From positions 1 to 36,498 of the forward strand of contig CAZKBD010000009.1 of assembly GCA_964550945.1 (NCBI GenBank): a stretch of DNA of 36,498 bases, given 5' to 3'. Origin of the DNA: an uncultured Methanosarcinales archaeon (GTDB lineage: Archaea > Nanobdellota > Nanobdellia > Woesearchaeales > CAZKBD01). Of the stretch, positions 200 to 36,498 are shown one piece after another; positions within the stretch are counted from its first letter, which is position 1; every line of letters starts with the position of its first letter. The position numbers and the translations under genes are program-made. The notes under the pieces were generated by a model. The model saw only the letters and a list, made by a program, of their open reading frames with translations. It did no database searches and was not told the origin of the DNA.

Positions 200-3139
200 A
201 TGAATACAAAAAAGATGGTGTTAATACTAGTTAGTTTGGTGTTTTTGTTTGCAATGTGCGTGGGTGTAAGTGCGTTTCCCACCAATCTTAGTGTTTCTAA
301 TGTGACGGTCTACCAATATTTTACAGGTCCTAAGATTGTACTTCAGAATTATTCCGGGGGAAGCTATTACCTCAAATCAGCTATTTATAACCTCGAATTA
401 TACCTAAACAATACTGATTTAAGTGTGAACATAACCGATGTTAACGTCACTCTTCCTAGCGGAGTTACCTTTGTGGCAGGATCAAATGATACAGACTCTA
501 CTGCAGCAGAAGCTTCATTTTCGAATACCACCAATAAATTAATCTGGTCAGCTACTGCTCCAGATGGGCTAATCGCTAACGGTTCTCTTACTTACAAAAT
601 ATTCTCATTTAACGTTACTGTTTCTTCTGGCAGCGATGGTGCTAAGGAGATAAGGATAGAAACTAAAGGATTAGCTCCAGGAGGCTATAACTTAACGAAC
701 AATATCGTTGCAGATACGACAGCACCAACTTTTGTGAATGCAACATTTGGTCCTGGGCCACAGGGAGTAGGTGCAGGCGATAACAACTACATCTATGCGT
801 TTATGAGCGAAACTCTTAATGGCAGCAGTGGTAGTGACGTGTACTTTAATCTATTTAATGTGACTTATGCTGGTGTGACTTTTAATATCACAAGTGCTAA
901 TATCACAATATCGTCAGGAAGTAAATCTGTAATAAACCTTACCGTTGATAATGGACTCAAGTTAAACACACTGAAGGTTTACAATGCAACACCAGTTGTT
1001 GCATACCAACTAAAAGCAGCGGCTGGAGCAGATGACCCCTTGATTGATTTTGCTGGAAACCAACTTGCAAACGGATCCTCAGCAACAGCTGCTGATAAAG
1101 TGCCCCCTCAAATAGGAAATATCGTTACTTATAGCCATGTTACCAAGGAAGTGGTGGTCCAGTTTAGCGAGGATATTGATACAGCATGGTTAAACATCAC
1201 AGCAATCAGATTTAATAGCACATCAGGTGCTAATGCCAAGGGTGCAAATGTAGCATTGGTTGCAACTACAAATTCAACATCAGGTAACACCTCTACTATC
1301 ACTTTAAGTGACGATTCTAGAGATAATCTTGCTCCTGCGACTAGTTTGAATTTGACGTTAAATATGACAGCAGTTAAGGATAAATCAGGCAATTTTGTAA
1401 TTCCATACACAAACCACTGGCTAACCACTTATACAAGAGACACAACTGCTCCAACAGTAACAGGCTGGTTCTTCAATGCGAACACAAATGTTCTTCAAAT
1501 TAACTTTAGTGAAAGAATGAATGTGACAAGCTTTGGTAATTCAAGTATACTTATATCTTATTTCCAAAACATGAATCGGACAGAAACCGGGATAAATGTC
1601 ACGTCTATTGTCTTAACTACAAGTGAAGTATCTAAAATTGGAAGTTTGGGCAATAAGTCAATAAATTTCACAATGCAAAATAATGAAACAAGGAATATTT
1701 CCACTTGGTATAGGAGAAATGGAGCATCAACACTTTATCTATCTGTAATGAATGGCTCCGATAGCGGCAGCATATTTATGACTGATTTGACTAACAATAC
1801 TATCAGTAGGATTGTTAACTCTTCAGGAACAGCTGTTACAACATGGACGTTAGATACTACTGCTCCAACAATTGTTACGCTAAACATATCAAATGCAACC
1901 CTAAATGCAAGGGAGATAACAGGCACAGTAGACTTCAGCGAAGAAATGAATCCAGAGGCAAATGTTTCTATCAACTTTTCGATTGGCTCAACTTCATACA
2001 TATTATTTACCACAGTAGTTACTAATCAAAGCTTATGGCAATTCAACTTCACTCCATCGAATGATTCGAGTGCAGATGGATTGAGAACAATGACCATCGG
2101 TGGAGCAAAAGACGACTATAATCAGACATTGGCATCAACATCAAGATTCGCATTTAGGTTTGATTCAACAGGCCCAAAACTACTCTGGGCTTACTTAGTT
2201 GACAACAGAACAAAAGATTCTTCTACAAACACATATAACTTAGCAAGGGTCACCGCATTAACTGCAAGTGGAGCAAATAGGGATTTAGTAGAGTCTACTT
2301 TAGTATTAGTGTTTAATGAGAATATTACAGAGGATGCCGCAACCAACAGCACATTTAACCTAACTGTGCAAGGAGATGGCGTTAATATCTCAACTGATGC
2401 AATAGCAAGGGATGCAACAGATTTATGGAAACTGAATATCACATTTTCAAGCGCTACAAATCTAACAATAAGGGGAAGATACAATAGCTCATTGCTTGGA
2501 ATAGGAAATAGCTCAGGAATAGATATAAACAACGCAACATTGTGGAACGGTGGGAGCTTAACCGATGTTGCAGGAAACCCCGCGTTAACAAATACATCAG
2601 CAGTTGATATTGCAGATGCCATGATTGAGTTTACAGGTAATGTATCAAAAACACTCTCTATACCAGCATGCGCAGATTCTGTTGAAATAAACAGATACCT
2701 AAGCACAGTAACATCTGCTTGTTCAGCATACACAGCAGGAGCATGGGGCAATGCAGTTTCAAGCGCAAACTTCCTGCCAATAAGAGGATATAAATGCACA
2801 TTGCATGGCGCTCTTGACTTGCCAATTTACACTATGAAAGTAGCAGAGTGCGGACTGCCACCACCCTCAGTAAGTTTAACACAAGGATGGGCATTGGTTG
2901 CAGTTAACCAATTCACATGGAGCAACGCCACTTTATACTTGAGCGATTTAGGATCAGGCTCACAAGTAAGCTATGTGTACACAGGAATTGACACAGCTCA
3001 AAGCGCGGCAAAACACCAGAGAGCAGATAGTGTAGCTCTGAATTATGGTAACTTGACATTAAACCCATACACTGGATATTGGATATTTACCAACTTTGAC
3101 CAGTCAAGCAAGACATTTACAGGTAATGGTATAATATAA
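200..3139 (+). CDS. Secreted S-layer-like glycoprotein with tandem Ig-like (DxTAP...FSE...DxAGN) domains and a divergent C-terminal GW...GYW tail module
   Basis: 979-aa ORF with RBS GAGGGAGG 9 nt upstream and Sec signal MNTKKMVLILVSLVFLFAMCVGVSA. Repeated DTTAP/DKVPP...FSE...DxAGN units, roughly 55-60 NxS/T sequons (manual count), no C-terminal TM helix. Confidence 0.85.
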   Translation: MNTKKMVLILVSLVFLFAMCVGVSAFPTNLSVSNVTVYQYFTGPKIVLQNYSGGSYYLKSAIYNLELYLNNTDLSVNITDVNVTLPSGVTFVAGSNDTDSTAAEASFSNTTNKLIWSATAPDGLIANGSLTYKIFSFNVTVSSGSDGAKEIRIETKGLAPGGYNLTNNIVADTTAPTFVNATFGPGPQGVGAGDNNYIYAFMSETLNGSSGSDVYFNLFNVTYAGVTFNITSANITISSGSKSVINLTVDNGLKLNTLKVYNATPVVAYQLKAAAGADDPLIDFAGNQLANGSSATAADKVPPQIGNIVTYSHVTKEVVVQFSEDIDTAWLNITAIRFNSTSGANAKGANVALVATTNSTSGNTSTITLSDDSRDNLAPATSLNLTLNMTAVKDKSGNFVIPYTNHWLTTYTRDTTAPTVTGWFFNANTNVLQINFSERMNVTSFGNSSILISYFQNMNRTETGINVTSIVLTTSEVSKIGSLGNKSINFTMQNNETRNISTWYRRNGASTLYLSVMNGSDSGSIFMTDLTNNTISRIVNSSGTAVTTWTLDTTAPTIVTLNISNATLNAREITGTVDFSEEMNPEANVSINFSIGSTSYILFTTVVTNQSLWQFNFTPSNDSSADGLRTMTIGGAKDDYNQTLASTSRFAFRFDSTGPKLLWAYLVDNRTKDSSTNTYNLARVTALTASGANRDLVESTLVLVFNENITEDAATNSTFNLTVQGDGVNISTDAIARDATDLWKLNITFSSATNLTIRGRYNSSLLGIGNSSGIDINNATLWNGGSLTDVAGNPALTNTSAVDIADAMIEFTGNVSKTLSIPACADSVEINRYLSTVTSACSAYTAGAWGNAVSSANFLPIRGYKCTLHGALDLPIYTMKVAECGLPPPSVSLTQGWALVAVNQFTWSNATLYLSDLGSGSQVSYVYTGIDTAQSAAKHQRADSVALNYGNLTLNPYTGYWIFTNFDQSSKTFTGNGII
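2174..3086 (+). repeat. 913-bp direct repeat, copy 1 (in-frame, coding)
   Basis: Line-by-line match to 6838..7750 (offset 4664). Only two differences, both synonymous (2209 A/G, 2224 T/A). Confidence 0.97.
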
Positions 3140-3143
3140 ACCA

Positions 3144-3183: not shown

Positions 3184-4122
3184 ATGACAATCAAAAAATT
3201 AGTTATTGTTGTAATTGTTCTGATATCATTGATTAATTTTGCAGCTGCAGTTTCATCGCCTGTGCAGGATCCTCATTGGTTTTATGGAATTGTTACCATA
3301 AATAGTAGGTCTATGGCCGCAGGCTCTACAATCACTGCTACAATCGGTGGAGTGGAAAAAGGGAGTATAACAGTTACTCCAGCAAGCCAATATGGAGCTT
3401 CTGGCAGTGGTTCTAAACTAGCAGTTACAGGATGCGGCACTGATGAAGATTGTTATAGTTCTACACAGACGATTTCATTTTCAGCTACTGTTCTCCAATT
3501 CTCAGATGTAACTTGCGGAACTGCGACATTTACAGCAGGCAAGTTAGAGGAAAAGAATTTAGCATGCACTGCAACTGAAATCGGAGGATATAACCCTCCC
3601 GGACCAGGAACAGCAAGCGGAGGGCCTACAGGTGGAGGCGGAGGAGGCGGAGGAGCTGCAGCACCAGCAGCAGTAGTGTCAAAAATAAAAGAAAATATTC
3701 TTGCAGATGAAGGTGGTACAGTTATTATGGGAGTTGGTGATATCTCAAAAATTAATATCAAAGGCATAAAACACGAATTTAAGTTGGATAACATAGGCGA
3801 TGATTATATTGAAGGTGTATGGAGTTCAGATCCAATAAGCGTTTTAGTTCGTTTAGCTCAAACTATTGAGACTGATTTAGGTAAAGATGGAGTAAATGAT
3901 ATCTCTACAAAGTTGGAGAGTATTTCTTCGGATAAAAAAGAGGCTACAATAACTATAAAACCTGTCAAAGAAGAAATAATAGCCCCACCACCTCCACCAC
4001 CGCCAGCAGAAAAGCCAAGAATTGTGACAGCGCAAGTTGTAATTGGGCTCACTATAATGATCTTGATTGTTTTAGTTGGCTTAGGAATTTACTATGGGGT
4101 TTCAAGGAAGAAAAAAGAGTGA
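3184..4122 (+). CDS. Membrane-anchored surface protein: signal peptide, PxxFYG head domain, poly-Gly linker, beta domain, poly-Pro linker, C-terminal TM helix and basic tail
   Basis: 312 aa with RBS GGAGGGGG. Head PHWFYGIVTINSRSMAAGSTITATIGG, linkers GGGGGGGG and PPPPPPP, C-terminal VVIGLTIMILIVLVGLGIYYGV-SRKKKE. Confidence 0.88.
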   Translation: MTIKKLVIVVIVLISLINFAAAVSSPVQDPHWFYGIVTINSRSMAAGSTITATIGGVEKGSITVTPASQYGASGSGSKLAVTGCGTDEDCYSSTQTISFSATVLQFSDVTCGTATFTAGKLEEKNLACTATEIGGYNPPGPGTASGGPTGGGGGGGGAAAPAAVVSKIKENILADEGGTVIMGVGDISKINIKGIKHEFKLDNIGDDYIEGVWSSDPISVLVRLAQTIETDLGKDGVNDISTKLESISSDKKEATITIKPVKEEIIAPPPPPPPAEKPRIVTAQVVIGLTIMILIVLVGLGIYYGVSRKKKE

Positions 4123-4437: not shown

Positions 4438-4497
4438 ATAATGGCTGCACTCAAATTTAGTTGTTTTTATATAATAAATAATAAAAAGAGGTGGAAA

Positions 4498-7400
4498 ATT
4501 CAAATAAATAAATTCATTTTTAAAAGTAGCATACTATTTACTCTTTTTTTTATGTTTCTGGCTAGTTCTGATTATGTTCTTGCAGCCAATGTCGTATTCA
4601 CTGGATATACTTATAATGTAACAGAAGGAGCATTGCCCAACACAAACGTTACAATTGAGATTTGGCAGGAAAATCCTTGGGGCTCAACTGCGTCTTACTC
4701 AAATATAAGCGGCGCGAATGGAAACTGGTCAATAACTATTGATGATTCAGTGCTTACTGGTAAAATGGTTAAGTTTATACCAAGGCATTATGTGTCAGCT
4801 AATGTTGTAAACTATGTTGGAGGAACATTACCTCCCTTCCCTTATCAAGAAATTGTTTCTATGCTAAATCTAAGCGCAATTAATTTTTATCTTAAGGAAG
4901 CAGCTACAATATCTATAAATGCAACTAATGCATCTGGTGGAATGTATGCAGTTAACTTTACTTATATGGTGAAAGACACAAAAGTTGGTTTTGATATTGA
5001 ATCAAACTGGCAAACTCCTGTTTATAACAAAACAATTTATGTCCCAGCTGACAGGAATTATTCTATTGAGATATTTCCGCAACAAGCTATGCCTATATAT
5101 TATAACCTAAATAACCTGCCATCTTATACTGGCGTAAAACATATTAATATCACGTTTAATACAACAACCTCTCCAATAAGGGTGTATGGATATGTTAATC
5201 TATCTAATGGAACATCTGGTAATTTTACTGAATTGAATATAGTAAATTACCTCTTAGAACCAGGAAATATGGTATTTAGCGGCAACGCAATGCCTAATAA
5301 TATGAGTGAATGGGCTGGGCTGGGGGATTTTTATAATACCACAAGCGGCTGGTATAATATATCTTTGCAAGGCACAACAATGTCCTCCCAAGTTTTAATG
5401 TTTGTCGTGGCAAAAGTAGGCAACCAATATTTTGGAGGCTTTAGGAATATTTCTCCAACAATTGGAGCAGATGTTACTGGATTTAATTTTACTTTGTACT
5501 TGTTGTTTGGAAATGCAACTAATAGCAGCATACAAAGAGCTATCGCTACTCAGGAATTTGGGAATCAAATAAATATTACTTCTGCACAAACATTGTTTGC
5601 TTTTGTGAACAGCACAGGCAGCGATCTAACAACAGCAACAGGCCATTTAGAAATACAACTTGCTTATTCTAAATTAGACTCTAGATTTCCTGATTTTACC
5701 TGGATGGTTGATGTAGCCCAGGGAGGTTTAGGCAGATTCACACTACCTCTTCTTAATTATAGCGTCAAAAAGTTGAATATGTTCACGCAGAGCTATGCGC
5801 CATTGAAATTATCCTATACAGCTGCGCAGCTTAATGTTCCACATATAAATATAAATTTAACTGCATTTAATCCTGGCGGAGTTGATGAGGATTTTGGCGA
5901 CATTGAAATGAAAATGATGAAAAGTTCAGCAGAATGCGATGTTCCTAGCCCGCCAACCAGCTGCGACTTTGCAGCTTCATCAGATGAAGAGGGTGAAGAT
6001 GACTTTAAGCCATTGAATGCTGTTATTTCAGGAGGGAAAATAAGCTTAAGGATTAAAAAAGGCGATATAACTGTTCATTATAAAAATGTAGACATGATTG
6101 CTTCAGGGCCCCCAGACGCTGCTTTTGATGATAATGCATCCAGCTCTGCGACTAATGGCTCAACTTTAGAAGAAGCATGGCGATTTGGAAGCAAAGGGCC
6201 TGAGATATATGATAGTGTTCTTATAGGTATCCCATATAACTCAAGTAATTATGATGAAAGAAGAGATTTTATCACAACAATTAAAAAATTGTATGATCCT
6301 AATTGGAATTTAATATGGGATGTTGATACTAACGGAACAGCCGGGCTTAAAACAAACTATACAGACTACACTGATTTTGATGACAATTGGTTTACTGGAA
6401 AAACCTGCAGCAAAACTGATGCCTCACAACAATGTTTTGTTAATACAACTACAGATATTATGTGGCTGACTATACCCCATTTCTCCGGGGTAGGCCCTCA
6501 ATTTCAGGGCTATGTAGTTGATTATGGCGGACCAGGAGTTAAAACACTTAATATAAGCAATGTAACATTGAACGGAAGAAGACACGATTTTAATGTTATA
6601 TTCAATGAAACAATGAACATAAGCATAAATGTAACCTTTACGTATACGCCAGCCACTGGATCAGCAAGTTTAGTTAACGGAACATGGTTTAATGCTACAA
6701 TATGGAATGGAACATTTACAATACAAAATAGCACTGCTAATGGTGTGGCTGCGGTAATCCTTGCTGGCGCAAAAGACAACCAAAGCAATACAATGAATAC
6801 TGAAGCAAGGTTTACATTTACGATAGATACTGTAGCACCAAAACTACTCTGGGCTTACTTAGTTGACAACAGGACAAAAGATTCTTCAACAAACACATAT
6901 AACTTAGCAAGGGTCACCGCATTAACTGCAAGTGGAGCAAATAGGGATTTAGTAGAGTCTACTTTAGTATTAGTGTTTAATGAGAATATTACAGAGGATG
7001 CCGCAACCAACAGCACATTTAACCTAACTGTGCAAGGAGATGGCGTTAATATCTCAACTGATGCAATAGCAAGGGATGCAACAGATTTATGGAAACTGAA
7101 TATCACATTTTCAAGCGCTACAAATCTAACAATAAGGGGAAGATACAATAGCTCATTGCTTGGAATAGGAAATAGCTCAGGAATAGATATAAACAACGCA
7201 ACATTGTGGAACGGTGGGAGCTTAACCGATGTTGCAGGAAACCCCGCGTTAACAAATACATCAGCAGTTGATATTGCAGATGCCATGATTGAGTTTACAG
7301 GTAATGTATCAAAAACACTCTCTATACCAGCATGCGCAGATTCTGTTGAAATAAACAGATACCTAAGCACAGTAACATCTGCTTGTTCAGCATACACAGC

Positions 7401-7803
7401 AGGAGCATGGGGCAATGCAGTTTCAAGCGCAAACTTCCTGCCAATAAGAGGATATAAATGCACATTGCATGGCGCTCTTGACTTGCCAATTTACACTATG
7501 AAAGTAGCAGAGTGCGGACTGCCACCACCCTCAGTAAGTTTAACACAAGGATGGGCATTGGTTGCAGTTAACCAATTCACATGGAGCAACGCCACTTTAT
7601 ACTTGAGCGATTTAGGATCAGGCTCACAAGTAAGCTATGTGTACACAGGAATTGACACAGCTCAAAGCGCGGCAAAACACCAGAGAGCAGATAGTGTAGC
7701 TCTGAATTATGGTAACTTGACATTAAACCCATACACTGGATATTGGATATATACTGACTTTAATGCGGCGAGTAAACTATTTAGCGGTAATGGGATAATA
7801 TAG
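4498..7803 (+). CDS. Large secreted glycoprotein. N-terminal beta-sandwich domains; C-terminal ~304 aa identical to the 200..3139 protein (Ig-like + GW...GYW tail)
   Basis: ORF is open from 4441. The GAGGTGG RBS (4488-4494) points to in-frame ATT at 4498, giving a normal signal peptide (MQINKFIFKSSILFTLFFMFLASSDYVLA). Start is uncertain (4441 ATG, 4498 ATT or 4504 ATA). Many sequons, no TM anchor. Confidence 0.8.
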   Translation: MQINKFIFKSSILFTLFFMFLASSDYVLAANVVFTGYTYNVTEGALPNTNVTIEIWQENPWGSTASYSNISGANGNWSITIDDSVLTGKMVKFIPRHYVSANVVNYVGGTLPPFPYQEIVSMLNLSAINFYLKEAATISINATNASGGMYAVNFTYMVKDTKVGFDIESNWQTPVYNKTIYVPADRNYSIEIFPQQAMPIYYNLNNLPSYTGVKHINITFNTTTSPIRVYGYVNLSNGTSGNFTELNIVNYLLEPGNMVFSGNAMPNNMSEWAGLGDFYNTTSGWYNISLQGTTMSSQVLMFVVAKVGNQYFGGFRNISPTIGADVTGFNFTLYLLFGNATNSSIQRAIATQEFGNQINITSAQTLFAFVNSTGSDLTTATGHLEIQLAYSKLDSRFPDFTWMVDVAQGGLGRFTLPLLNYSVKKLNMFTQSYAPLKLSYTAAQLNVPHININLTAFNPGGVDEDFGDIEMKMMKSSAECDVPSPPTSCDFAASSDEEGEDDFKPLNAVISGGKISLRIKKGDITVHYKNVDMIASGPPDAAFDDNASSSATNGSTLEEAWRFGSKGPEIYDSVLIGIPYNSSNYDERRDFITTIKKLYDPNWNLIWDVDTNGTAGLKTNYTDYTDFDDNWFTGKTCSKTDASQQCFVNTTTDIMWLTIPHFSGVGPQFQGYVVDYGGPGVKTLNISNVTLNGRRHDFNVIFNETMNISINVTFTYTPATGSASLVNGTWFNATIWNGTFTIQNSTANGVAAVILAGAKDNQSNTMNTEARFTFTIDTVAPKLLWAYLVDNRTKDSSTNTYNLARVTALTASGANRDLVESTLVLVFNENITEDAATNSTFNLTVQGDGVNISTDAIARDATDLWKLNITFSSATNLTIRGRYNSSLLGIGNSSGIDINNATLWNGGSLTDVAGNPALTNTSAVDIADAMIEFTGNVSKTLSIPACADSVEINRYLSTVTSACSAYTAGAWGNAVSSANFLPIRGYKCTLHGALDLPIYTMKVAECGLPPPSVSLTQGWALVAVNQFTWSNATLYLSDLGSGSQVSYVYTGIDTAQSAAKHQRADSVALNYGNLTLNPYTGYWIYTDFNAASKLFSGNGII
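6838..7750 (+). repeat. 913-bp direct repeat, copy 2 (in-frame, coding)
   Basis: Matches 2174..3086. Perfect identity over 862 bp (6889..7750 vs 2225..3086). Confidence 0.97.
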
Positions 7804-7832
7804 AATTTTATTACTTTTTCTATAATAACCAT

Positions 7833-10922: not shown

Positions 10923-10994
10923 ATAGTTCACCTCTTTGTTGATGTTTTTTAATTATATTCAAATATATATTAAGTTAATCTATCTACTAACTCC

Positions 10995-15795: not shown

Positions 15796-15821
15796 CCCCT
15801 AATTGAGTTAATCAATTCCTC

Positions 15822-23307: not shown

Positions 23308-23342
23308 ATTAAACCCCCTCAAAATAGTTTCCCAAAATCCAC

Positions 23343-25187: not shown

Positions 25188-25223
25188 TTAAATCCCCCCT
25201 TAGTTTATGGAATCTCTTTTGAT

Positions 25224-25241
25224 ATTAAATAGTTTTCTATT
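25224..25241 (-). promoter_or_regulatory. 18-bp BRE-TATA element, identical to 15822..15839
   Basis: Minus strand AATAGAAAACTATTTAAT upstream of the RBS of the 614-aa gene. Confidence 0.65.
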
Positions 25242-25255
25242 CAAAATCATAATAA

Positions 25256-28200
25256 TCACGGGATTATAGGGATTGTATCTTCATCAACTTTAACCCAATA
25301 ACCATAACCAGGCTGCACAACATTTAGTGTATTCAAGAATGAAGGCCTATCAGGACTATAGCTTTTCCATTCATCACCATCATCAATAGCTTTATACTGG
25401 AATATAGTCCCTAGACCATCTCCAAGCGGCGCAAATAACTCTTCTGCATTGGTTTCTGTAAGGGTCGGATATCCAATCAAATTCCATCCTTGTTTTAGAT
25501 TAAATGTTGTGTTTGATGTAACTATCCCTTGCAGCTCCAAAACATCATCTGAGGTCATATCTATCCAATAACCTAAATTAGGGCTTAGTGCTGTTAAATT
25601 ATTAAGGAATGCTGGCCTTGCAGGATTATAAGACTTCCATTCATTGCCGACATCATTTGCATCATACGCAAAAACAACATTATAATTGCCTTCAATTGAA
25701 GACAACGGAGCAGGTAAAGTACCGTTAACTAAACTTAATGGTGTTGAGATTAGGTTCCAGCCGGTATTTAATGGTATATCAAACACTTTATTTAAAGTGA
25801 TATTAAAATTCTCTATGTTGTTTGTTTCATTTCTTTCACTTATTAAATCTCCAGGATCGATTATCCAACTGAGTTCATGCTCTCCAATCGTTCCATTATA
25901 ATCAAATTCTAAATTTAGGCGGGAATTATTTGTGATTGATGCGTTTCTTATGTCATACAAATCATCATCAACATCAAATTCGACAAAAATATTTGATAGA
26001 TTATTATGCCCTGAATTTTCAATTACCACTTCAATAATTGCAGTTTCTCCTTCTCTGATGCTACCCTGTGTTAAATTTACAAAAGAAAAGTATAAATCAG
26101 TACAATCAGGATCTATCCCGCTTAAACAATCAGGATCACATCCATTGTCTTCTGCATTGTTGCAGATATTGTCATGGGCATAGCTTATACAATCGCCTGG
26201 GCAGCCATAAAAGTTCTCCCAAAAACCTGGCTCACAAATTGAATTATTGTTGCAGAAATTTATTTCTTTTGAAAAAATTAATGAATTATTGTGATAAAGT
26301 TGAACTGATTTCATTGAATCTTTATAACCCACCCGGTCATAGAACCATGTTGAATTAGTTACTTCTGGCGGATCAGAAAGAATAACAAAATATATTTCAA
26401 AATTTCTTTCATAGACCGTGTCATTATTGTTATCTGATATTTTAAAACTGTAAGTGCCCTCTTGAGAGTCATTTGTCAATGGTTCGCCAAAAGTTACACC
26501 TTCATTTTCCAAAGACACACTGCCATTATTGTAGAGAACTAAACTAATTTCAATAACAGAAACATTTTCTGCAGAAGTTCTTTCTAATACTTTTGTTTGG
26601 AACGTCTTCTGCTGTGTTGTTCTGCATTGGAGTTGAGGCTTCAACCCAAAATAGGCGTATTCATTTGAATCATAATGCCCGGCTTCCCCACTTAAAATAA
26701 GATTTGACATTGTAGTCCTTTGGCCAGTATCAAGAAATCCATCTAGATCTGTGTCTTCTCCGTAAATATCAAAATTCCCATTGCATCCCCGTTTGCAGAA
26801 AGGGGTGAGATCTGCTGACCAACAACAAGAACCAGACTTATCGCACCCTAATCTGATGTCAAAAGGATTTGGACTTCCAGGGCCAGGACCACATAAAGGC
26901 CAACAGTCACAATACTGGTCAGCCAAATCAAATTTATGCCCCATCTCATGCGTTACAATGCCTACTGAATCAGTTTGAGCTATAATAGAGGGATTAATCG
27001 AACTTGCCCACCCCCCAACATTGTAATTGCATAACACTATTAAAGAACCCTGGGCTACATCTTGGTCCGTTATACCGACAATATAATCATAATTGTTTCC
27101 TGTCGCAGATTTGTAATCATCTCCACAACCTTTCAAAATTCCAAGTGTAGAGAGTCCATCAAAACAATGTGGTTGTAGTGGATAGCTTGAAGTATATTTA
27201 TCACATTGGTTGTCTATCCAAAATAATCCATAGTTTTTCCACTCAGGTATCACAAATTTAAATTGCTCAGGACACATATGTAAAGGTATTCTTTCCAAGA
27301 AATAGTGAGAAACCCTATATGCTTCTTGCTTGTACTCTTCAAAAGTTCCCTCCCAGTCAAATGGCAAGATTAAAATGGTTAGTGAGGGTTCTTCCTGAAT
27401 AGTGCACCTCTCAGCACACCCTTCCCTTCCAGCATCATTCCACATTCCTGGCCAGTCGCACTTATTGCTAGAGCCAACATTACTTCCTTGGTTATTAGTC
27501 AATAGTTGGAAGTCTATATTTTCATTTGCTGGGCAGAAATTGTTATGGATTATTGAATTAGAGTGGCTATTAGCGCTTAGACCTATACCTGCCTCATTGT
27601 GGTAGACATCATTATCTTGTATAGTATTCTCATCAGAATAAACCAGGTACAACCCATGATATTTACTTCCAGAAACATTATTGTAGAATATGTTATTCTT
27701 GTTTGAGTCCTTGCTAAATATGCCCTGATCATTATTTTCTAATCTATTCCCTGTGAGAACAGAATAATTTGAATTATCCATCTCTATACCGTTTACATAA
27801 TATTTAACAATGCAGCTTTTTACAGTTAACCCTTTTCTGTTTTTAATGCTAATGCCACTTCTACTGCCAGTTCCGATTAATGCTGCCCCATTGCAATTAA
27901 CGGCTATATTATCTGCTCCAATTGAAATCCCATTTGACAGATAGTAATCTCCTGGACAAAAAATAGTGCTTTGGGTTACATCCATATTATCTTCTGGTAT
28001 AACACATTCTGAGCAGCTGCCATCAGCATTACAAAAATGGCTGGGATCACATCCACAAACATTACAATTGTTGATTAAATCTCCATTATCACAATACAAT
28101 GGTTTTGTTGATGAGCATTGGTTGTCTGGCGTATTATCCAAACAAGATTGCGGAATACTTGCACCATATATCTTACCTAAAATTTTGAATAACTTATTTT

Positions 28201-29860
28201 CTCTGCTAGTCCATGTTATTACAAAATTATCCAACGAATTCAAACCTACATAGGGGTAACCGACAAAATTAGTTCCTTTATCAAAAATGGAGTAATTAAT
28301 AACCAAAAATTCATTTCCGATGCTGCTATTAAACTTAAACCTGTTCGCATAGAGGCCAGCCATACCCACCCAACTAGCCCTACCCCCCTCCCAAACAACA
28401 ATAAAATCACTTTCATTATCTAAAAAAATGTACGGTGAATAACCTATATCAGTTATTTTATTGATTCTAAATTTGTTTCCAATTTCATTTCCCAACAAGT
28501 CATACGCTTGTCCGGATATATCGTTATTCCCTTCCCTCCAAACAATTATAGAGTTTCCAGATTTATCGATTGCTGCAGAGGATAGATCAAAAGTTGTTTC
28601 AAACTCTTTGATACCGCTTTTGTTTGAATTAAATAACCTAGCGTGTTTTTTATAAATAACAATAAATTGGCCAGAGGGATTCATTGAGATAACAGGCCTC
28701 CCAAGCGGCATTCCAAAATAAAAGTCGTACGGGCATTCAATTGAATTTGCAAAAATTTCAAATTCATCCCCTATCCTATTACCATCAAAATCATATCCTT
28801 GCCCATATATGTTACATGAGCCATTACCGACATCACCCAACCATACACTAATGAAGTTTCCATTAGAATCCATCCCGACAGAAGGATGAGCCTGATCCAA
28901 AAAATTATTTGTATTGACTTGAAACTCATCACCTCTTCTGCTGTTATCACCATAAAACCTTTGACCGTAAATTCCAAAACCGCTTCCATCCTGGCCATCG
29001 CTTTGCCAAACCACAACAAACTCTCCATTAGGATCCTTTGCTATAGCAGGGGAACCTTGGTTGTTGGTGGTGTGGGTATTCACTCTAAATTTATTACCTA
29101 TCTTGTCCCCTAAACTGCTATATTTTTGACCATAAACATCAAATCCGCTACTTCCTTCACCTTCCCACACAATTATAAAATTTTTATCATTGTCTATTAC
29201 CATTTGAGGATCTAACTGATTATATTCCTGATCTGAACTCACATCAAATTTGATTGGGTTATTTAAAGGTGATTCACAACCATCTATCAATTCAGAGGAG
29301 CAGTATGACTCACAGACATCGCCAGGGTTGATACATGCATCAAGAGTACAATCATTACCATCAGAGCAGTCACTATCCGAATTGCATGATGGCTCTAGCC
29401 TAAATTTGCTCCCAGGACAACAATATCCTCCACTAACCAATATCTCACCACAAAAACATTGTCTCCCTACAGGTCCCAGGTTGCACTCCGGGGCAGATGA
29501 AGAATAACATGCAGCATAAGCTGTACTGCCCTCTAAACAGACGCCTCTGCTAGCGTTTGTACGGCAATCTACATCTGAAAGACACCGTGGAAATAAACAC
29601 GCACATTCTGCACCCTTTGCTAATTGGCCTTCTATACACCTACAGGAGATGGGTTCAGACCCCGTCACAATCCCTCCTTCTGTCGGCATATTATATCCGG
29701 TTAGTAAGTTTACCCTATTGGTCTTCTCAAAAGAGCCACTAGTATTTTTTTCGTTATTAACTATATTGTCACCTATATTTCTTGAATCTCCAGCTATACA
29801 GACAGATAACAGGATTAGAAGTATTGATATACAATTAGCCAAAAAAATATTTTTATCGAT
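25256..29860 (-). CDS. Large secreted multidomain zinc metalloprotease-like protein: Cys-rich N-terminus, beta-propeller-like repeats, NosD beta-helix, HExxH zincin, CARDB, tandem GWNL...GYW tail
   Basis: ORF from TTG 29842 in the track, open upstream to ATC at 29860, which follows a GGGGGGT RBS (start uncertain). Motifs FQVNT...QxxP...FVVVWQSDGQDGSGFGIYGQRF, VTHEMGHKFDLADQY and IDPGDLISERNETNN. Confidence 0.85.
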   Translation of the reverse strand: MDKNIFLANCISILLILLSVCIAGDSRNIGDNIVNNEKNTSGSFEKTNRVNLLTGYNMPTEGGIVTGSEPISCRCIEGQLAKGAECACLFPRCLSDVDCRTNASRGVCLEGSTAYAACYSSSAPECNLGPVGRQCFCGEILVSGGYCCPGSKFRLEPSCNSDSDCSDGNDCTLDACINPGDVCESYCSSELIDGCESPLNNPIKFDVSSDQEYNQLDPQMVIDNDKNFIIVWEGEGSSGFDVYGQKYSSLGDKIGNKFRVNTHTTNNQGSPAIAKDPNGEFVVVWQSDGQDGSGFGIYGQRFYGDNSRRGDEFQVNTNNFLDQAHPSVGMDSNGNFISVWLGDVGNGSCNIYGQGYDFDGNRIGDEFEIFANSIECPYDFYFGMPLGRPVISMNPSGQFIVIYKKHARLFNSNKSGIKEFETTFDLSSAAIDKSGNSIIVWREGNNDISGQAYDLLGNEIGNKFRINKITDIGYSPYIFLDNESDFIVVWEGGRASWVGMAGLYANRFKFNSSIGNEFLVINYSIFDKGTNFVGYPYVGLNSLDNFVITWTSRENKLFKILGKIYGASIPQSCLDNTPDNQCSSTKPLYCDNGDLINNCNVCGCDPSHFCNADGSCSECVIPEDNMDVTQSTIFCPGDYYLSNGISIGADNIAVNCNGAALIGTGSRSGISIKNRKGLTVKSCIVKYYVNGIEMDNSNYSVLTGNRLENNDQGIFSKDSNKNNIFYNNVSGSKYHGLYLVYSDENTIQDNDVYHNEAGIGLSANSHSNSIIHNNFCPANENIDFQLLTNNQGSNVGSSNKCDWPGMWNDAGREGCAERCTIQEEPSLTILILPFDWEGTFEEYKQEAYRVSHYFLERIPLHMCPEQFKFVIPEWKNYGLFWIDNQCDKYTSSYPLQPHCFDGLSTLGILKGCGDDYKSATGNNYDYIVGITDQDVAQGSLIVLCNYNVGGWASSINPSIIAQTDSVGIVTHEMGHKFDLADQYCDCWPLCGPGPGSPNPFDIRLGCDKSGSCCWSADLTPFCKRGCNGNFDIYGEDTDLDGFLDTGQRTTMSNLILSGEAGHYDSNEYAYFGLKPQLQCRTTQQKTFQTKVLERTSAENVSVIEISLVLYNNGSVSLENEGVTFGEPLTNDSQEGTYSFKISDNNNDTVYERNFEIYFVILSDPPEVTNSTWFYDRVGYKDSMKSVQLYHNNSLIFSKEINFCNNNSICEPGFWENFYGCPGDCISYAHDNICNNAEDNGCDPDCLSGIDPDCTDLYFSFVNLTQGSIREGETAIIEVVIENSGHNNLSNIFVEFDVDDDLYDIRNASITNNSRLNLEFDYNGTIGEHELSWIIDPGDLISERNETNNIENFNITLNKVFDIPLNTGWNLISTPLSLVNGTLPAPLSSIEGNYNVVFAYDANDVGNEWKSYNPARPAFLNNLTALSPNLGYWIDMTSDDVLELQGIVTSNTTFNLKQGWNLIGYPTLTETNAEELFAPLGDGLGTIFQYKAIDDGDEWKSYSPDRPSFLNTLNVVQPGYGYWVKVDEDTIPIIP
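25650..25762. repeat. 113-bp exact repeat shared with 23737..23849 and 30302..30414
   Basis: Encodes GWNLISTPLSLVNGTLPAPLSSIEGNYNVVFAYDAND in three genes, with identical codons. Confidence 0.95.
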
Positions 29861-29907: not shown

Positions 29908-32900
29908 TCAGCTAATAGTCAAACTTCTATCATCATAAACCTTAACCCAATATCCATAACCCGGCTTCATTGTAGTTAGCGTATTCAGGAATGCTGGCCT
30001 TGCAGGATTATAAGACTTCCATTCATTGCCAACATCATCAGATTCATACATAAATACAACTTCTAAATCATCAGCTATACCATTAAACAGTATCTCAGCA
30101 TCTGTTTCATTGCGGGAAGGGTATCCAATCAAATTCCATCCTTGTTTTAGATTAAATGTTGTGTTTGATGTAACTATCCCTTGCAGCTCTAAACTATCAT
30201 CTGAGGTCATATCTATCCAATAGCCCAATTCAGGAGTAATCTCTGTTAAAGTATTCAAGAATCCAGGCCTTGCAGGATTAAAGCTCTTCCATTCATTTCC
30301 AACATCATTTGCATCATACGCAAAAACAACATTATAATTGCCTTCAATTGAAGACAACGGAGCAGGTAAAGTACCGTTAACTAAACTTAATGGTGTTGAG
30401 ATTAGGTTCCAGCCTTGAGTTAGATCAATGTTGAACTGAAAACACGCTTCATCAACTGTTCCGTCACAATCATTGTCTAATCCATCGCAAGATGCCTCTG
30501 GGTTTTCATAGTCAGATCCATAATCTGGATTAGTACAACCAAGCCACTCACCATTTGCACACGTTTCGATACTCCCTTCGCAAACCCCTTCCTGTAATGC
30601 GCAAAGCTGGGTTTCAAAATCATCGCAAACTATGCTATTATTGCTAACAGCAGAAACCTGCACATTATCTTGGACTCTCGTATTATTAGCATAATCAATG
30701 GGCATAACAGTATAATAATACATTTGGCCATCAGTTAAACCTCCACCTAAATCAGTGTATGTCGTATTTGTTTGCGACTGTATTTTATTTTTTTCACAAA
30801 TACCCTGCAGAGAAGCGGAGCAAGGCAAATCATTCCAATTTGCTCCAAATGGATATATCTCTGCACAGTCTTCATCACCCCAATTATTAGGCTCTCCATT
30901 GACCCAATTAGTATAATTAGATTCTCCATAAGCCCAAACAAAATTACCCTCTTGAACAATATCATTAAGACCAATCCATCTATCTTCTCCAGAATAAGTT
31001 GAAGCTAACCAGCTGTTTTCAGCCTCGTCATTTATTGTTACCAAATACCACCCTAAAGAAGTGCAGGAATCATTAGCTTCTTGCCAACTTCTACTGATTT
31101 CCGTTAATCTATAACAGCTACCAGAATATGAATCCCAACCATTAAGGCATACTTCTTCTTGTGTAATCCTCTGGCCAATCTGCCCGCTAATCTCTGACCT
31201 ATAAATCTCATAATAATACACGCCGCTAGCGGCATCATAAGGCTCTTCCCATCCTAATAATATATTGCCATGTTTCTTTGAAGTTGCGTTAATATTAGTA
31301 ACCGGCTCCGGAGCTGTTGTATCAACATTAACTCTATAATGCCCAATATTCCCTAAATTCCCCAATGTATCAACAGAAACAATATGGAAATACCATGTTC
31401 CATCATCAATATCATTAAATGAGGTAAAATTGCTTGTTGTGTAAGTTCCAGTCAAATTTGTTGGAACTGTATTCTCAACTTTATCAAAACTATAATAATG
31501 ACCCGCTATGCTGTCAGGATGCAGAACACCCCATTCTAAAGAAGGATCATTATTTTGATACCATTGTGTTTGGTTTGAGTGTGATGTTGAACTGACATTT
31601 GGTGCAGACGTGTCAATGTTTATCTGGTAATTAGAGGGGCTTGTTCCGACTTCACCCAATTCATTCTCAGAGACTATGTGGAAATACCACGTTCCATCAG
31701 CAATGTTTGTGAAGGTCACATTAGTGCTGGTTGTATAACTGCCTGTGGATGCAGTTGGAATAGTTGATTCGTTTTGGTCTAGGAGATAATAGTGAGCCAT
31801 TATTCCTTGATTGATTTCCCAATTAAGGCGTATATCTCTATTAGAATAATATTTTTCCTCAATAGGATGGGAAGGAGATATTACTAAAGGGACTAAGATA
31901 GCCGTTACTATAGTTCCATCTTGTCCATAGCCCCCCATACTGTTCCCACTTCCCCCATTAATTTTGATCTTTGAAGGATCTATATTAGAAATATAGCTAC
32001 AAAATATTTTTATTCTGCCTCCACCTCCACCTCCACCACCTCCCTGATCTTGTTGATCATAAAATCCCCCATAAATCCCATTACCTCCAATTGCACTAAT
32101 AAACCCCAATTGAATACAATCTACAGAGTGTATAAATATTCCTCCTCCACTCCCTCCTCCACTCCCCCCACTCTCCCCGTCCCCATCCCGACCATTCACT
32201 GAAATATTTCCATTAACTATCGTCGTATTTGTCACTAGTAATCTTATTTTTGCACCACCATTCCCACCTACATTACTAAACCCAGCACCACCTCCTGAAC
32301 CCATATCTAAAATAGTGGTGCTTTGATCGCCGTACTCNNNNNNNNNNCTAGGAGAACAAAAATACCCACCATCTCCCCCATTCCCACCGTATCCCCCTCC
32401 ACCCCCTCCATCACATCTCCAACCGGTCTCAGGACCCCAACAACTACAGCCTCCTCCTCTTCCACCCCCGGGACCCTCACTAAACTCCCCATAGGGGGAG
32501 GTTCCACCCCTATACCCTGCTCCATCACCATTTATCTGGCTTATTGGATCAATAAAAACATTATCAGCGTAAATCTCTAACTCTCCAGTTCCTTCTGTGC
32601 CATTGTAAGGTGTTACAAATAAAATCCCTCCATTTGTTATGCTAACATTTTTGTAATGATACACCCCATGCATTGTAACATTTACTCCATTAATTATCAG
32701 ATTGTCACCTGCAACATCAATCTCCCTGCTCTGGATATTGTTGGAATAATTTGCCTCCATAAAATCATTAAATGGCGAGATAATCACGATTACAGTATAA
32801 TCCCCATCCAAATCTGGAGCCCACACAACTGAAACCGTTTCTGTTCCTAAACCAGAAATATCAACAGTTGCGTTTCCTATTAGAATGTCCTCATATTGTC

Positions 32901-35900
32901 CATTGTAATAAAATTCAATTGCAGCATTATATGCACTTACATTCAGCAAATTATTAATAACCGCTTCTATTGTGACATTATCACCAACATAAGGGGTATC
33001 GTCAGAAAAGGTTATATTGTCAACAACTAAATCAGGATATTCCTCAACCCAAAACGAACTAACTTTTTCCCTTTCAAAATTGGTTCCATTTGCAGTGACT
33101 GTTAAATCATATTCTCCATTGATATTAGTTTCAGTGTAAACATTTGTATAGTTGCCGTCGTTTGCTATTAAATCATTGTGCGTTCCGTCGTCATACAAAT
33201 AAATTAGATTCTCGCTGGTATCAGGCTTTATTATGTTCACTACAATATTAGCGTTAGTTATTGGATTTGTATCATTTTTTAATTCAGCTGTAATAGTTAA
33301 TTGTTGATTTGAGTGTAAAACATAATCACTTAGTGAAACATCCATAGACATGCTTGATTCAACAAATGTATAGATTAAATATTCAACATTTTCAGTGACA
33401 TTGTAGCCAAAAACATTTAATGTCCATTCTCCCTGCAATGGATTGCCTATTTCATACGCTTGGGTATAGTCGCCATCTTCATAAGTTATATTAAAAAAGG
33501 CTGCGTTGTTTGGATCGATTAGTGTACCATTTGAATCAATTAAGGTAAAATTTAGGGTACCATTAAAATTCCCTAAAATAAACTCTACTGCATCGATATT
33601 TTGCAAATAGACTGTATGGTTTTTCCCTTGGCTTTGGCTAAGATTTCCAGATATTGAAGCCAGTTGCTGAGGAATTGGTTCAATGCCAAAAGATTTTTGT
33701 TGGAGTGGCGCAGTTTGGGACTCAAAATTATTTTCCAGTATATATCTAACCTCATTGTAAGGTTGTATATCATTGTGAAGTCCTTCATGATTGCTTCCAA
33801 AATTTGCTTGCTCAATTAAATCCAGTTTGACGCTATTTACTGCCACAAAACCATCATCCTCACCTGGCAATACCCAGCTGCCTAGTCCTCCATTGGTCCC
33901 AGCAATGGTGTACTGGTATATCCCGCTTGTTGTAATATCTTCACAGTTTTCTCTATGAGGATTATCGCAGTTAAGAGAATTAAGAAAATCATTGCCTGGT
34001 TTCATCTGAAAGAAAGCTTTCCCAGCTACATTTGTGCCAGTGACTCCTTTATAAGCCTCAGCAAAAAGATAAAAATAATTCGTTAATTCGGAACCATGAT
34101 TGGGTGTACCAAGCATTACAAGCTTTCTTACATCATCTTGATACAGGTCACTTCTCCTTGTATACCCTCTTGACACTAAGCCACCCATTGAATGAGCAAC
34201 TATATCAACATATTTGGCATTGTATTGGTTTTTTACATATCTTATTCTATTTTTTAATACCTCAGAATACCTTGAGATGTTGCCTCGTGCAGGTACATTA
34301 CTAACTTCTAGATCCATCACTTCAACAGTAAAACCATCATTTTCAAGCCTTTGCTTCATCACAGACCACGTCTCACTCATTGGATCAACTACATTGTAAC
34401 CATGCACCAGAATAACAGGAACAATGCAGCTATAATGGCAGCTTCCTCCGCAATCAACACCAGTCTCACCTAAGTTATTATCTTGATAATTATTATTGCA
34501 GCAATCCTGGTTAGCGCAGCTCCCCCCACAATCAATTCCTAGTTCATCACTGTCTTTAATGCCGTTTTCACATTGGCCCAGGCATAATCCCCCTCCACAA
34601 CCATATTGGCAATTTCCAACTAATCCTTCGTTAAAATATGAGTTATAGAAGCAGGAATTTCCAGAGCAACCCAAGTTATAACATGTTCTGTTATGGTAAA
34701 CGCTATTGCCTATGCAATAATTAGTGCCCCAACCATCACAATAACTATTGCCACATTCTTGGACTTTCTGCTCATCAGTATATGGGTTGTTAAAACAAGA
34801 GCTGCCAGAGCATCCTTTGTCATAGCATGTCCTTGAGTGATAAACATCATTATCTCTGCAAGAATTACCACCCCAGCCATCGCAATAATCGTCTCCACAA
34901 TCAGATCTTAATTGAGCTGAATCTGAATTGGAGCAGTATGAAGAAGGAGTTCCAGGATTATTGCATATATAAGTTCGGTAATTCTGATAAAGGTCATTAT
35001 TCGAGCACCAAGGTGAATCAACCCAGCCGTCTGTTCCGCAATCTGAATTTGAATCGCATGCTATGACCTCACATCCAAAATCATAATTGCATGTCGCATC
35101 ATTATCAGCGCATTTCTCTGTTGTAGTGCAGTCATCAGCTAATGCCCAAGCATCCCACTGCAAAGCTCCGTCACAGCCAGATGAAGTTCCAGAGCAATAT
35201 TTATCCTGATGCTGCACGCCAACATCATTACTGCAAGCTGTTCCCCAAGGGCATCCATAGTCTGTTGTCACATCTTCCTGGCATTTGTAAGTTGTTGGCC
35301 TGTAATTGCATCCATCGCAGCAAGTTCCTGATGTGCATACACAAGCACATACAGCATCATAATTGCAGCTTGAGTCATCATTCGCGCATTTCTCTGTTGT
35401 TGTGCAGTCATCATAAACAACAGGAGTATCCCACTGCAAAGCTCCATCACAACCAGTTGAAGAGCCAGAGCAATATTTATCTTGGTGCCTTACATAAACA
35501 TCCTGGCCACAGTTAGTTCCATCTGCACATTCATAATCTGTTGTAACATCTTCCTGGCATTTGTAGGTTGTTGACCTGTAATTGCAGCCATCGCAGCATG
35601 TTCCTGATGTGCAAACGCAAGGTGTTCCTCCAGAAACCCATTGCATATCCCATATAAAATCCACAGGAGACGTAAAGCTTTCAACTATCGAACCACTGGT
35701 TGTTACTTTATGAATACTGTCCCCAGGCGTGCTTATCCAAAAATATTGTCCATCCCATGCAAGACCAACTGGATATGAGAAAGCAAAGCCACCAACAACA
35801 GAGCCGCTAGTTGTAAGCTTATAAATGTAATTATCATCCATATCTGCAAGCCATAAGTAATCATCTGCATAAGTTAAACCTAAAGAAAAATCGCCGCCTG

Positions 35901-36498
35901 GTGTAGGAAAGTAACTAACAACTTCTCCAGTTGTTGTTAACTTGTAGACTCTATTCAGGGAAGAGTTAGTACTAGACCATGTAGCCAACCACAAATATGT
36001 GCCATCCCAAACTAAACCAGTTGGAGCATACGGTCCGAAGAAATGGCTTATCTCTTGTCCTGAAGTAGTCATCTGATAGATTCTCCTAAGAACTGAAGCC
36101 TCCCACAAATATGTGCCATCCCACGTTATTCCTACAGGGCTTTCAGGGCCAGAAAATTGAGAAACTAAAGTCCCATTTGTATAAATTTTTGTGGTGTAAC
36201 CTGGAGCTGAACTACCACTTGCCAACCAAAGGTAGTCAGATGAACTAGTAGTAGTAATATTGCTTAATCTATAGGTTATTTTTGGGCTTTTGATTATCTT
36301 ATCTTTTATCAACTGAACTTTTGTATTAAACTCCTTCAAAGCTTCTGAATCATTAAATGTTTCTTCAGGAGAATCACTCTCACTGGATTTGCTCGTATAA
36401 TACGCTTGGCTAATTATTGGACTAACCTGCCCAAACCAGTCAAATTGATTATTTTGACTATCAATCACAGTAAATTTTATTGCATTATTAGAATCACC
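29908..36498 (-). CDS. 5'-partial giant secreted multidomain lipase/esterase-adhesin: WDGxYLW propeller, Cys-rich repeats, alpha/beta hydrolase, LYDDGxHxD domain, CARDB, Gly-rich domain, Ig/FN3 repeats with inserted C-type lectin, MopE-related motif, tandem GWNL...GYW tail
   Basis: Frame stays open to the window edge (GGT GAT TCT AAT... before the GTG at 36468). Motifs PVILVHG, VDIVAHSMGGLVSR, LGTPNHGS, DDGFV, NHEGL, WIGLND, GEPNN and WNDLPC. Spans a 10-N gap. Confidence 0.85.
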   Translation of the reverse strand, partial: GDSNNAIKFTVIDSQNNQFDWFGQVSPIISQAYYTSKSSESDSPEETFNDSEALKEFNTKVQLIKDKIIKSPKITYRLSNITTTSSSDYLWLASGSSAPGYTTKIYTNGTLVSQFSGPESPVGITWDGTYLWEASVLRRIYQMTTSGQEISHFFGPYAPTGLVWDGTYLWLATWSSTNSSLNRVYKLTTTGEVVSYFPTPGGDFSLGLTYADDYLWLADMDDNYIYKLTTSGSVVGGFAFSYPVGLAWDGQYFWISTPGDSIHKVTTSGSIVESFTSPVDFIWDMQWVSGGTPCVCTSGTCCDGCNYRSTTYKCQEDVTTDYECADGTNCGQDVYVRHQDKYCSGSSTGCDGALQWDTPVVYDDCTTTEKCANDDSSCNYDAVCACVCTSGTCCDGCNYRPTTYKCQEDVTTDYGCPWGTACSNDVGVQHQDKYCSGTSSGCDGALQWDAWALADDCTTTEKCADNDATCNYDFGCEVIACDSNSDCGTDGWVDSPWCSNNDLYQNYRTYICNNPGTPSSYCSNSDSAQLRSDCGDDYCDGWGGNSCRDNDVYHSRTCYDKGCSGSSCFNNPYTDEQKVQECGNSYCDGWGTNYCIGNSVYHNRTCYNLGCSGNSCFYNSYFNEGLVGNCQYGCGGGLCLGQCENGIKDSDELGIDCGGSCANQDCCNNNYQDNNLGETGVDCGGSCHYSCIVPVILVHGYNVVDPMSETWSVMKQRLENDGFTVEVMDLEVSNVPARGNISRYSEVLKNRIRYVKNQYNAKYVDIVAHSMGGLVSRGYTRRSDLYQDDVRKLVMLGTPNHGSELTNYFYLFAEAYKGVTGTNVAGKAFFQMKPGNDFLNSLNCDNPHRENCEDITTSGIYQYTIAGTNGGLGSWVLPGEDDGFVAVNSVKLDLIEQANFGSNHEGLHNDIQPYNEVRYILENNFESQTAPLQQKSFGIEPIPQQLASISGNLSQSQGKNHTVYLQNIDAVEFILGNFNGTLNFTLIDSNGTLIDPNNAAFFNITYEDGDYTQAYEIGNPLQGEWTLNVFGYNVTENVEYLIYTFVESSMSMDVSLSDYVLHSNQQLTITAELKNDTNPITNANIVVNIIKPDTSENLIYLYDDGTHNDLIANDGNYTNVYTETNINGEYDLTVTANGTNFEREKVSSFWVEEYPDLVVDNITFSDDTPYVGDNVTIEAVINNLLNVSAYNAAIEFYYNGQYEDILIGNATVDISGLGTETVSVVWAPDLDGDYTVIVIISPFNDFMEANYSNNIQSREIDVAGDNLIINGVNVTMHGVYHYKNVSITNGGILFVTPYNGTEGTGELEIYADNVFIDPISQINGDGAGYRGGTSPYGEFSEGPGGGRGGGCSCWGPETGWRCDGGGGGGYGGNGGDGGYFCSPXXXXEYGDQSTTILDMGSGGGAGFSNVGGNGGAKIRLLVTNTTIVNGNISVNGRDGDGESGGSGGGSGGGIFIHSVDCIQLGFISAIGGNGIYGGFYDQQDQGGGGGGGGGRIKIFCSYISNIDPSKIKINGGSGNSMGGYGQDGTIVTAILVPLVISPSHPIEEKYYSNRDIRLNWEINQGIMAHYYLLDQNESTIPTASTGSYTTSTNVTFTNIADGTWYFHIVSENELGEVGTSPSNYQINIDTSAPNVSSTSHSNQTQWYQNNDPSLEWGVLHPDSIAGHYYSFDKVENTVPTNLTGTYTTSNFTSFNDIDDGTWYFHIVSVDTLGNLGNIGHYRVNVDTTAPEPVTNINATSKKHGNILLGWEEPYDAASGVYYYEIYRSEISGQIGQRITQEEVCLNGWDSYSGSCYRLTEISRSWQEANDSCTSLGWYLVTINDEAENSWLASTYSGEDRWIGLNDIVQEGNFVWAYGESNYTNWVNGEPNNWGDEDCAEIYPFGANWNDLPCSASLQGICEKNKIQSQTNTTYTDLGGGLTDGQMYYYTVMPIDYANNTRVQDNVQVSAVSNNSIVCDDFETQLCALQEGVCEGSIETCANGEWLGCTNPDYGSDYENPEASCDGLDNDCDGTVDEACFQFNIDLTQGWNLISTPLSLVNGTLPAPLSSIEGNYNVVFAYDANDVGNEWKSFNPARPGFLNTLTEITPELGYWIDMTSDDSLELQGIVTSNTTFNLKQGWNLIGYPSRNETDAEILFNGIADDLEVVFMYESDDVGNEWKSYNPARPAFLNTLTTMKPGYGYWVKVYDDRSLTIS
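30217..30416. repeat. 200-bp exact repeat shared with 23652..23851
   Basis: Direct comparison; see the other copy. Confidence 0.95.
32338..32347. other. Assembly/scaffold gap (10 N) within the Gly-rich coding segment
   Basis: Run of n characters flanked by poly-C-rich sequence. Confidence 1.

Follow-up and report, generated by a model that had tools for sequence, protein, structure and literature searches.

The window analysed here is a stretch of 36,498 nucleotides that makes up an entire contig (CAZKBD010000009.1) of a 1.97-Mb, 92% complete genome from an uncultured archaeon (GCA_964550945.1), whose proteins have their nearest named homologues in Woesearchaeota and Nanoarchaeota. With these homologues, a pilin-like gene of archaeal type and an order that comprises more than a hundred families with small genomes, the source is probably a Woesearchaeota-type DPANN archaeon. 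It holds 13 genes, all of which except a Memo gene appear to encode exported proteins. Two unnamed modules recur in these 12 secreted proteins, nine of which have at least one of them: a head of about 97 residues, which directly follows the signal peptide in the 312-, 842-, 713- and 614-residue proteins, and a tail of about 172 residues in two repeats, which ends six proteins, the 614-residue protein having both. These counts agree with those originally made from the bare sequence, from which it was predicted that head and tail are a cognate docking pair. Here, we report that gene order in this and related genomes lends strong support to head and tail as a functional pair, and we weigh the reading that their contact tethers anchorless cargo to the cell surface. 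The genes concerned are arranged as follows:

200..3139, plus strand: 979-residue secreted, sequon-rich protein with a divergent tail (2618-3136) at its end.
3184..4122, plus strand: 312-residue protein made of signal, head (3262-3573), linker and transmembrane (TM) helix (residues 277-309); directly after the 979-residue tail gene.
4441..7803, plus strand: 1120-residue secreted protein with a divergent tail (7282-7800) at its end.
7833-8699: Memo-family gene (PF01875), between the two surface-gene blocks.
10470-10931: archaeal pilin-like gene, also between the two surface-gene blocks, with what we take to be a class III signal.
11040..13568, minus strand: 842-residue protein with head (13206-13496), Cys-rich repeats and a C-terminal immunoglobulin (Ig)-like domain, no TM helix; follows the 713-residue head gene.
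13654..15795, minus strand: 713-residue protein with head (15430-15720), Cys-rich repeats and a partial S-layer-like region; directly after the 2481-residue tail gene.
15877..23322, minus strand: 2481-residue putative cargo with a TIM barrel like that of glycoside hydrolase family 2, beta-helices, MopE-type repeats, Ig domain and tail (15880-16395).
23343..25187, minus strand: 614-residue predicted extender that has both a head (24810-25112) and a tail (23346-23873), as well as MopE-type and Cys-rich repeats.
25256..29842, minus strand: 1528-residue putative cargo with beta-helix, a weak M6-like metalloprotease motif, CARDB domain and tail (25259-25786); directly before the 614-residue head gene.
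29908..36498, minus strand: 5'-truncated open reading frame of at least 2196 residues with a propeller-like region, alpha/beta hydrolase, CARDB, C-type lectin and tail (29911-30438).

The last of these leaves the contig end, so that its N-terminus, with its signal and a possible head, lies outside the window. With our head profile A5, whose training set includes them, the four window heads score 54 (312-residue protein), 93 (842), 103 (713) and 92 bits (614). The canonical tails of the 2196-, 1528-, 614- and 2481-residue proteins share 59-78% mutual identity and show the motif originally described for all six, which the tails of the 979- and 1120-residue proteins break as written; there the GW-L-like strand is kept in the second repeat only, and both tails score 17-18 bits (E about 1e-3) with a profile built from the four canonical tails of the window. 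They are nonetheless true homologues of the main tail family, because a profile of eight divergent tails aligns with it across the two repeats (hhalign 96.4%, E 1.4e-9). The predicted lack of anchors on the tail side is borne out: none of the six proteins has a hydrophobic segment beyond the signal region, and no archaeosortase-type signal (PGF-CTERM and kin) was found after any window tail, either as an NCBIfam row or as a hydrophobic segment. The 312-residue head protein has such a segment at residues 277-309. Of the endings proposed for the head-only proteins, this TM helix and the Ig-like domain of the 842-residue protein stood, while the 713-residue protein has a partial S-layer-like match (NF033506, at 39 bits where the cut-off is 110).

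Three of the four window head genes lie directly after a gene ending in a tail (979 to 312, 1528 to 614 and 2481 to 713 residues), and the fourth lies after another head gene. The order of tail gene and then head gene recurs on three further contigs of the same genome, and on a fourth a GH10 domain, tail and head follow one another within one chain. Two of the window junctions are bridged by contigs from public runs, one by X1 (15248-16087) and X3 (15645-16281), which may be source samples, and the other by X5 (24969-25499); window DNA was present in public groundwater metagenome runs, all from one study, and no RNA run was among those listed with it. Promoter and terminator scans gave results at shuffle level.

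Among 151 surveyed genomes of the order, the tail was detected in 82, the head in 50 and a divergent head subfamily in 19. With the window genome left out, 48 genomes had both modules, 7 the head only, 33 the tail only and 62 neither, in a count that includes the unpublished G106 and G125 and lacks independence among related genomes. On inspection, a divergent tail lies beside the head in two of the seven genomes with the head only. Of 68 N-terminal-head genes in 48 genomes, 42 lie directly after a tail-ending gene, 7 after such a head gene and 4 are head-tail fusions, and among the 15 with neither arrangement 5 have a visibly divergent tail upstream. Because the earlier profiles had drawn part of their training data from these loci, the count was repeated on held-out genomes absent from profile building, where 27 of 33 head genes follow a tail gene directly (12 weak head matches below 25 bits being left out) and the reverse order occurs in 2 of 19 cases. 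Seen from the tail side, 48 of 106 genes with a C-terminal tail are followed by a head gene, these 106 being drawn from 138 listed tails after setting aside 12 classed as internal, 6 that were not fetched and 14 whose downstream DNA was too short or open. As a control, 37 of 71 heads were found within 700 nucleotides after a listed tail, against none of 136 CARDB domains, a surface domain without N-terminal bias, for which the count is still 0 at 3 kb.

The division of anchors follows the same polarity. Downstream head proteins have a TM helix in 38 of 42 cases and in 24 of 27 held-out cases, while a TM helix after the tail was found in none of 75 and none of 32 tail genes, respectively. The pairing also extends over deep divergence, with median identities among paired modules of 23% for tails and 24% for heads, and tail clusters map onto head clusters. 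In 12 genomes, the divergent head subfamily (hhalign 94.6%) comes after a tail subtype of its own, on giant cargo. About half of the adjacent pairs represent one orthologous locus (a tail-only gene followed by a head-TM gene), and four or more further subfamilies pair alike: that giant cargo with its divergent head, the 979/312 type (nine loci, found via their heads), a head-TM protein of about 300 residues, and the canonical type of the window. A search with a bacterial head gave 22 metagenome loci with 31 heads, 11 after a tail gene, 8 after a head gene and 1 fused; judged by named relatives and C-terminal motifs, most of these loci are probably Chloroflexota-like. In one of the loci, a methanogen S-layer glycoprotein (L201:297-4297; NF041431, 611 bits, above cut-off) ends in the tail and is followed by a gene encoding head, PKD domain and dockerin. 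A pattern scan of genome contigs also returned three cyanobacterial loci, which were spurious and were discarded.

The two modules are also found fused, and in both orders, with eight head-tail and five tail-head non-redundant cases, the latter also before type IX secretion system (T9SS) C-terminal domains (CTDs). Co-occurrence, adjacency in a fixed order, two-way fusion and TM helices on the head side thus uphold the predicted pairing at the genomic level, and we infer from it that tail and head touch. We consider it probable, at about 0.62, that they form a cognate non-covalent docking pair and that their binding tethers cargo to the cell surface. Cargo and anchor would be exported separately, the cargo ending in a tail and having no membrane helix, the head protein starting with a head and mostly ending in such a helix; tail-head contact would then hold the cargo on a single-pass or S-layer-associated protein, and proteins with both modules would lengthen the chain. 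In the window, the 312-residue protein would be a membrane anchor, the 713-residue protein a possible S-layer-associated anchor and the 614-residue protein an extender, with the 2481-, 1528-, 2196-, 979- and 1120-residue proteins as cargo. The recurring unit would be a two-gene tether of cargo-tail and head-anchor, and head-tail pairs would be specific to their subtypes.

Several observations weigh against this docking pair. Of 81 tail-bearing relatives, 33 had no head by either profile, and when ten tail-only genomes were retested with a deeper profile seven still showed none, although the two newly found heads both directly follow a tail gene. No head gene was detected directly after 58 of the 106 tail genes, and the tail is internal or N-terminal in 34 of 245 proteins. 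The head profiles were partly trained on neighbours that are counted in the 42/68 and 48/106 tests, and the single orthologous locus behind about half of the pairs means that the counts overstate the number of independent events. Joint inheritance of neighbouring DNA would account just as well for the co-divergence of tails and heads (Mantel r 0.74), and mean-field coupling over 101 pairs, a comparison of low power, gave an inter-module top z of 5.8 against 5.8-7.5 in six within-cluster permutations. In loci L196-L199, head-TM genes lie after or near cargo that ends in a different C-terminal module, and the head is therefore not confined to this tail. That module has about 45 residues and looks two-helix-like, the L196 cargo being papain-like, and it is possibly a second ligand for the head. 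Complex prediction counts neither way, the tail of the 2481-residue protein and the head of the 713-residue protein scoring 0.33, 0.33 and 0.31 against controls of 0.00, 0.02 and 0.15, where a margin of 0.20 was asked. Head subtypes picked by eye yielded one probable case (hhalign 85%) and three unsupported ones (36%, 7% and 1%), none of which was counted.

The many genomes with tails and no detected head would suit a tail that binds glycan, S-layer or lipid by itself, with the head a generic first domain of anchored stalks and the neighbouring genes co-expressed without contact. The conserved aromatic residues of the tail would befit a carbohydrate binder, the head has a common spacer fold, and heads also come after another tail type. 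Co-expression, however, leaves unexplained the fixed order, the end-to-start geometry, the two-way fusions and the matching of subtypes, and the CARDB domain shows no such adjacency (0/136); we regard this explanation as unlikely. A further alternative makes head and tail the two halves of one ancestral fused domain, since split, with the junction now a travelling recombination cassette whose halves no longer interact. It would account for the tail-head fusions with linkers of 22-41 residues in T9SS-type proteins and in the window genome, and for the window, where the tails share 69-82% DNA identity and shuffled repeats are numerous. Yet every head gene encodes a signal peptide of its own and mostly a TM helix as well, the order persists across domains of life at about 23% identity, and the opposite fusion order exists, all of which make such a remnant very improbable.

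Searches with the tail profile returned 11,375 representatives at 50% identity (E<=0.001), with the tail at the end of subtilases, papain-like and C25 peptidases, glycoside hydrolases, beta-helices, lamin-tail and S-layer proteins. In 245 fetched proteins it lies within 30 residues of the C-terminus in 211, and a hydrophobic segment beyond residue 70 was seen in 7. Such a position on unrelated cargo, and at the end of the S-layer protein in L201, could indicate a sorting signal that is cleaved, like a T9SS CTD or PGF-CTERM, by an enzyme encoded elsewhere. Internal, N-terminal, doubled and cargo-less tails exist, though, no recurring peptidase was found beside tail genes, and in bacteria the tail precedes a separate T9SS CTD; we give this explanation hardly any credence.

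A fibre offers another way to read the same genes: the head-TM protein would be a membrane chaperone or assembly factor, and the tails would form a polymer or a fibre cap, by analogy with the WxL/DUF916-DUF3324 pilus. The gene logic of WxL clusters, with a tail-only gene, a cargo-tail gene and a TM partner, is indeed similar (PMC10599100; bioRxiv 10.64898/2026.10.17.759780). Ahead of the tail, tail-only proteins of the type L011:3544-4251, with about 30 orthologues, have an N-terminal TM helix, an ITG-like motif, a short conserved strand and a cysteine, and this strand could be a donor strand. At the end of the genes beside them is a conserved strand pattern that, to the eye, resembles fibre subunits and has no Pfam support. 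Against a fibre, heads are also present in fusions and on cargo without an anchor, Pfam gave no row for WxL, DUF916 or DUF3324 with any tail, head or window protein, and each module alone models as compact (predicted local distance difference test, pLDDT, 97 and 96), a weak point since incomplete pilins can model well. A fibre is accordingly rated quite unlikely.

Neither module matched Pfam or NCBIfam. The tail model (pLDDT 97, predicted template-modelling score 0.91) has 172 residues in two repeats of about 86 with ten strands and three short helices, and the tail is thus predicted to be a beta-rich two-repeat domain. Foldseek against the PDB gave nothing for it at E<=0.001, its best VIA match has Z 4.7 (root-mean-square deviation (rmsd) 2.5, 64 aligned), and it resembles one predicted phage protein (A0A8D9C8P8; TMq 0.66, E 3e-4); these searches decide neither the newness of the fold nor its difference from known folds. 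For the head (pLDDT 96), the model is a sandwich that best matches transthyretin-like, CnaB and carboxypeptidase-D regulatory domains, with 8fia at Z 8.1 (rmsd 2.4, 80 aligned), 5aq0 at Z 6.8 (3.0, 74) and 8bdw at Z 6.5 (3.4, 80). Against transthyretin-like domains Z ranges from 8.1 to 6.5 over 74-86 residues at about 10% identity, middling values that show a common arrangement at the fold level only, and the head is predicted at that level to be a transthyretin-like (prealbumin-fold) sandwich of seven to eight strands. Two heads have weak PF13620 matches. An isopeptide link was rejected, there being no conserved Lys/Asn/Asp set among columns conserved at >=50%. An acidic DD-x-x-T...EG loop kept in about half of the heads may bind calcium. 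Sequence searches of the PDB gave nothing convincing, an Atlas search gave unnamed clusters only, and plasmid and phage records searched with the tail had no matches.

The original prediction had also called the arrangement a cellulosome-like scaffold, and this part found no support in the window. Dockerins are helical EF-hand modules of about 60-70 residues with two calcium loops. PF00404 (dockerin) matched none of 69 tails at E<=0.1, and the tail is beta-rich, with no EF-hand motif in its model and no conserved DxDxDG-type columns; PF00963 (cohesin) matched none of 70 heads and nothing in the 92% complete genome, whose one PF00404 match sits on a different contig from the window. In the Foldseek list of the head, the cohesin-dockerin entry chains 4fl4_C and 2b59_B stand low down (TMq 0.43-0.45, E about 0.01). 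The term cellulosome overstates the window, because it has no multi-head scaffoldin, with one head per protein, and elsewhere (51 fetched head proteins and relatives) a chain has at most three. The likeness to cohesin-dockerin systems, including non-cellulosomal archaeal ones (PF00963/PF00404; PMC9012536), lies in the anchorless cargo, the two-repeat C-terminal module, the anchored partner and the two-module adaptors. Heads also share chains with dockerins or cohesin-like domains (P0131, P0270 and L201); the difference lies in the absence of a sequence match, in a tail of 172 residues that is predicted to be beta-rich, in a head predicted to be transthyretin-like and mostly occurring once per chain, and in partner genes that are adjacent in fixed order. 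In P0270, a secreted protein of 490 residues, three heads stand with a cohesin-like domain and a dockerin, an architecture that appears to be a small scaffoldin-like adaptor joining the two systems. On contig C62 of the window genome (L015), a tail gene precedes a DNRLRE/lamin-tail protein, whose end is dockerin-like, and next comes a 1475-residue TM protein with cohesin- and head-like stretches; all of these likenesses were seen by eye and have no profile support.

WxL clusters likewise combine variable cargo on an invariant C-terminal module with a small module-only protein and a TM-anchored partner, and are described as building a donor-strand pilus with a dedicated chaperone, confined to Bacillota (PMC10599100; bioRxiv 10.64898/2026.10.17.759780); they differ from the present genes in lacking a shared Pfam match and in that heads are also found on cargo and in fusions. 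In T9SS type B CTD proteins with PorP/SprF, likewise, a C-terminal domain binds a dedicated membrane partner and holds cargo on the surface (PMC9143113). That partner is an outer-membrane beta-barrel of the secretion system (PMC9143113), unlike the head protein, a single-pass protein with a sandwich of about 97 residues in archaea that are probably monoderm. By these tests the head-tail pair belongs to none of cohesin-dockerin, WxL and type B CTD-PorP. Transthyretin-like, CnaB and carboxypeptidase-D regulatory-like domains are akin to the head in predicted fold, and differ in the low identity given above and in the isopeptide residues. Our literature searches, which covered listings outside subscription journals and supplements, brought up no paper describing the head or the tail. 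Two genomes of the order have a head joined to a T9SS type A sorting domain (L157:2773-3627 and L158:5072-5821), PF18962 being above cut-off in L157. Both fusions adjoin tail and head genes, and they may stem from bacterial transfer or from contamination of the bins.

The order of tail gene, anchored head gene and second head gene was seen in three locus types, and in two of these the second head protein, where complete, is anchorless. Because of this, and because cargo-less tail proteins exist, it may be speculated that the two-repeat tail binds two heads; bivalence, if true, would explain both kinds of protein. A still broader reading is a widespread and so far undescribed surface-assembly system of DPANN archaea, methanogens, and Chloroflexota-type and T9SS-type bacteria, in which pseudo-symmetric tails binding two heads would build branched, subtype-coded assemblies of anchors, extenders, cargo-less connectors, and enzymes and adhesins of up to 5000 residues with a head or a tail, with links into cohesin-dockerin chains and S-layers. 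This is offered tentatively, and we hold it to be doubtful. The docking pair itself would be a concrete mechanism for surface retention in DPANN archaea, where the means of holding giant anchorless enzymes and adhesins bears on host attachment or feeding. The tail family is large and unnamed, so demonstrated binding would annotate thousands of proteins and predict their display and anchor. Several divergent subtypes within a single genome suggest orthogonal pairs and possible protein connectors alongside cohesin-dockerin.

The window also shows signs of repeat shuffling. The final 1 kb or so of the 979- and 1120-residue genes (2142-3156 and 6806-7818) are 96.6% identical in DNA, which points to recent duplication or conversion of the tail cassette. 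Five neighbouring genes (11040-36498) have Cys-rich, MopE-type and beta-helix repeats in common at 67-89% DNA identity, and this part of the window appears to be a hot spot of domain shuffling. One public contig is without 282 nucleotides (14965-15248) of the 713-residue gene, equal to one Cys-rich repeat, and a 619-residue version of the protein is present in the protein collection (P0122); the difference in length reflects either variation in repeat number or a difference between assemblies.

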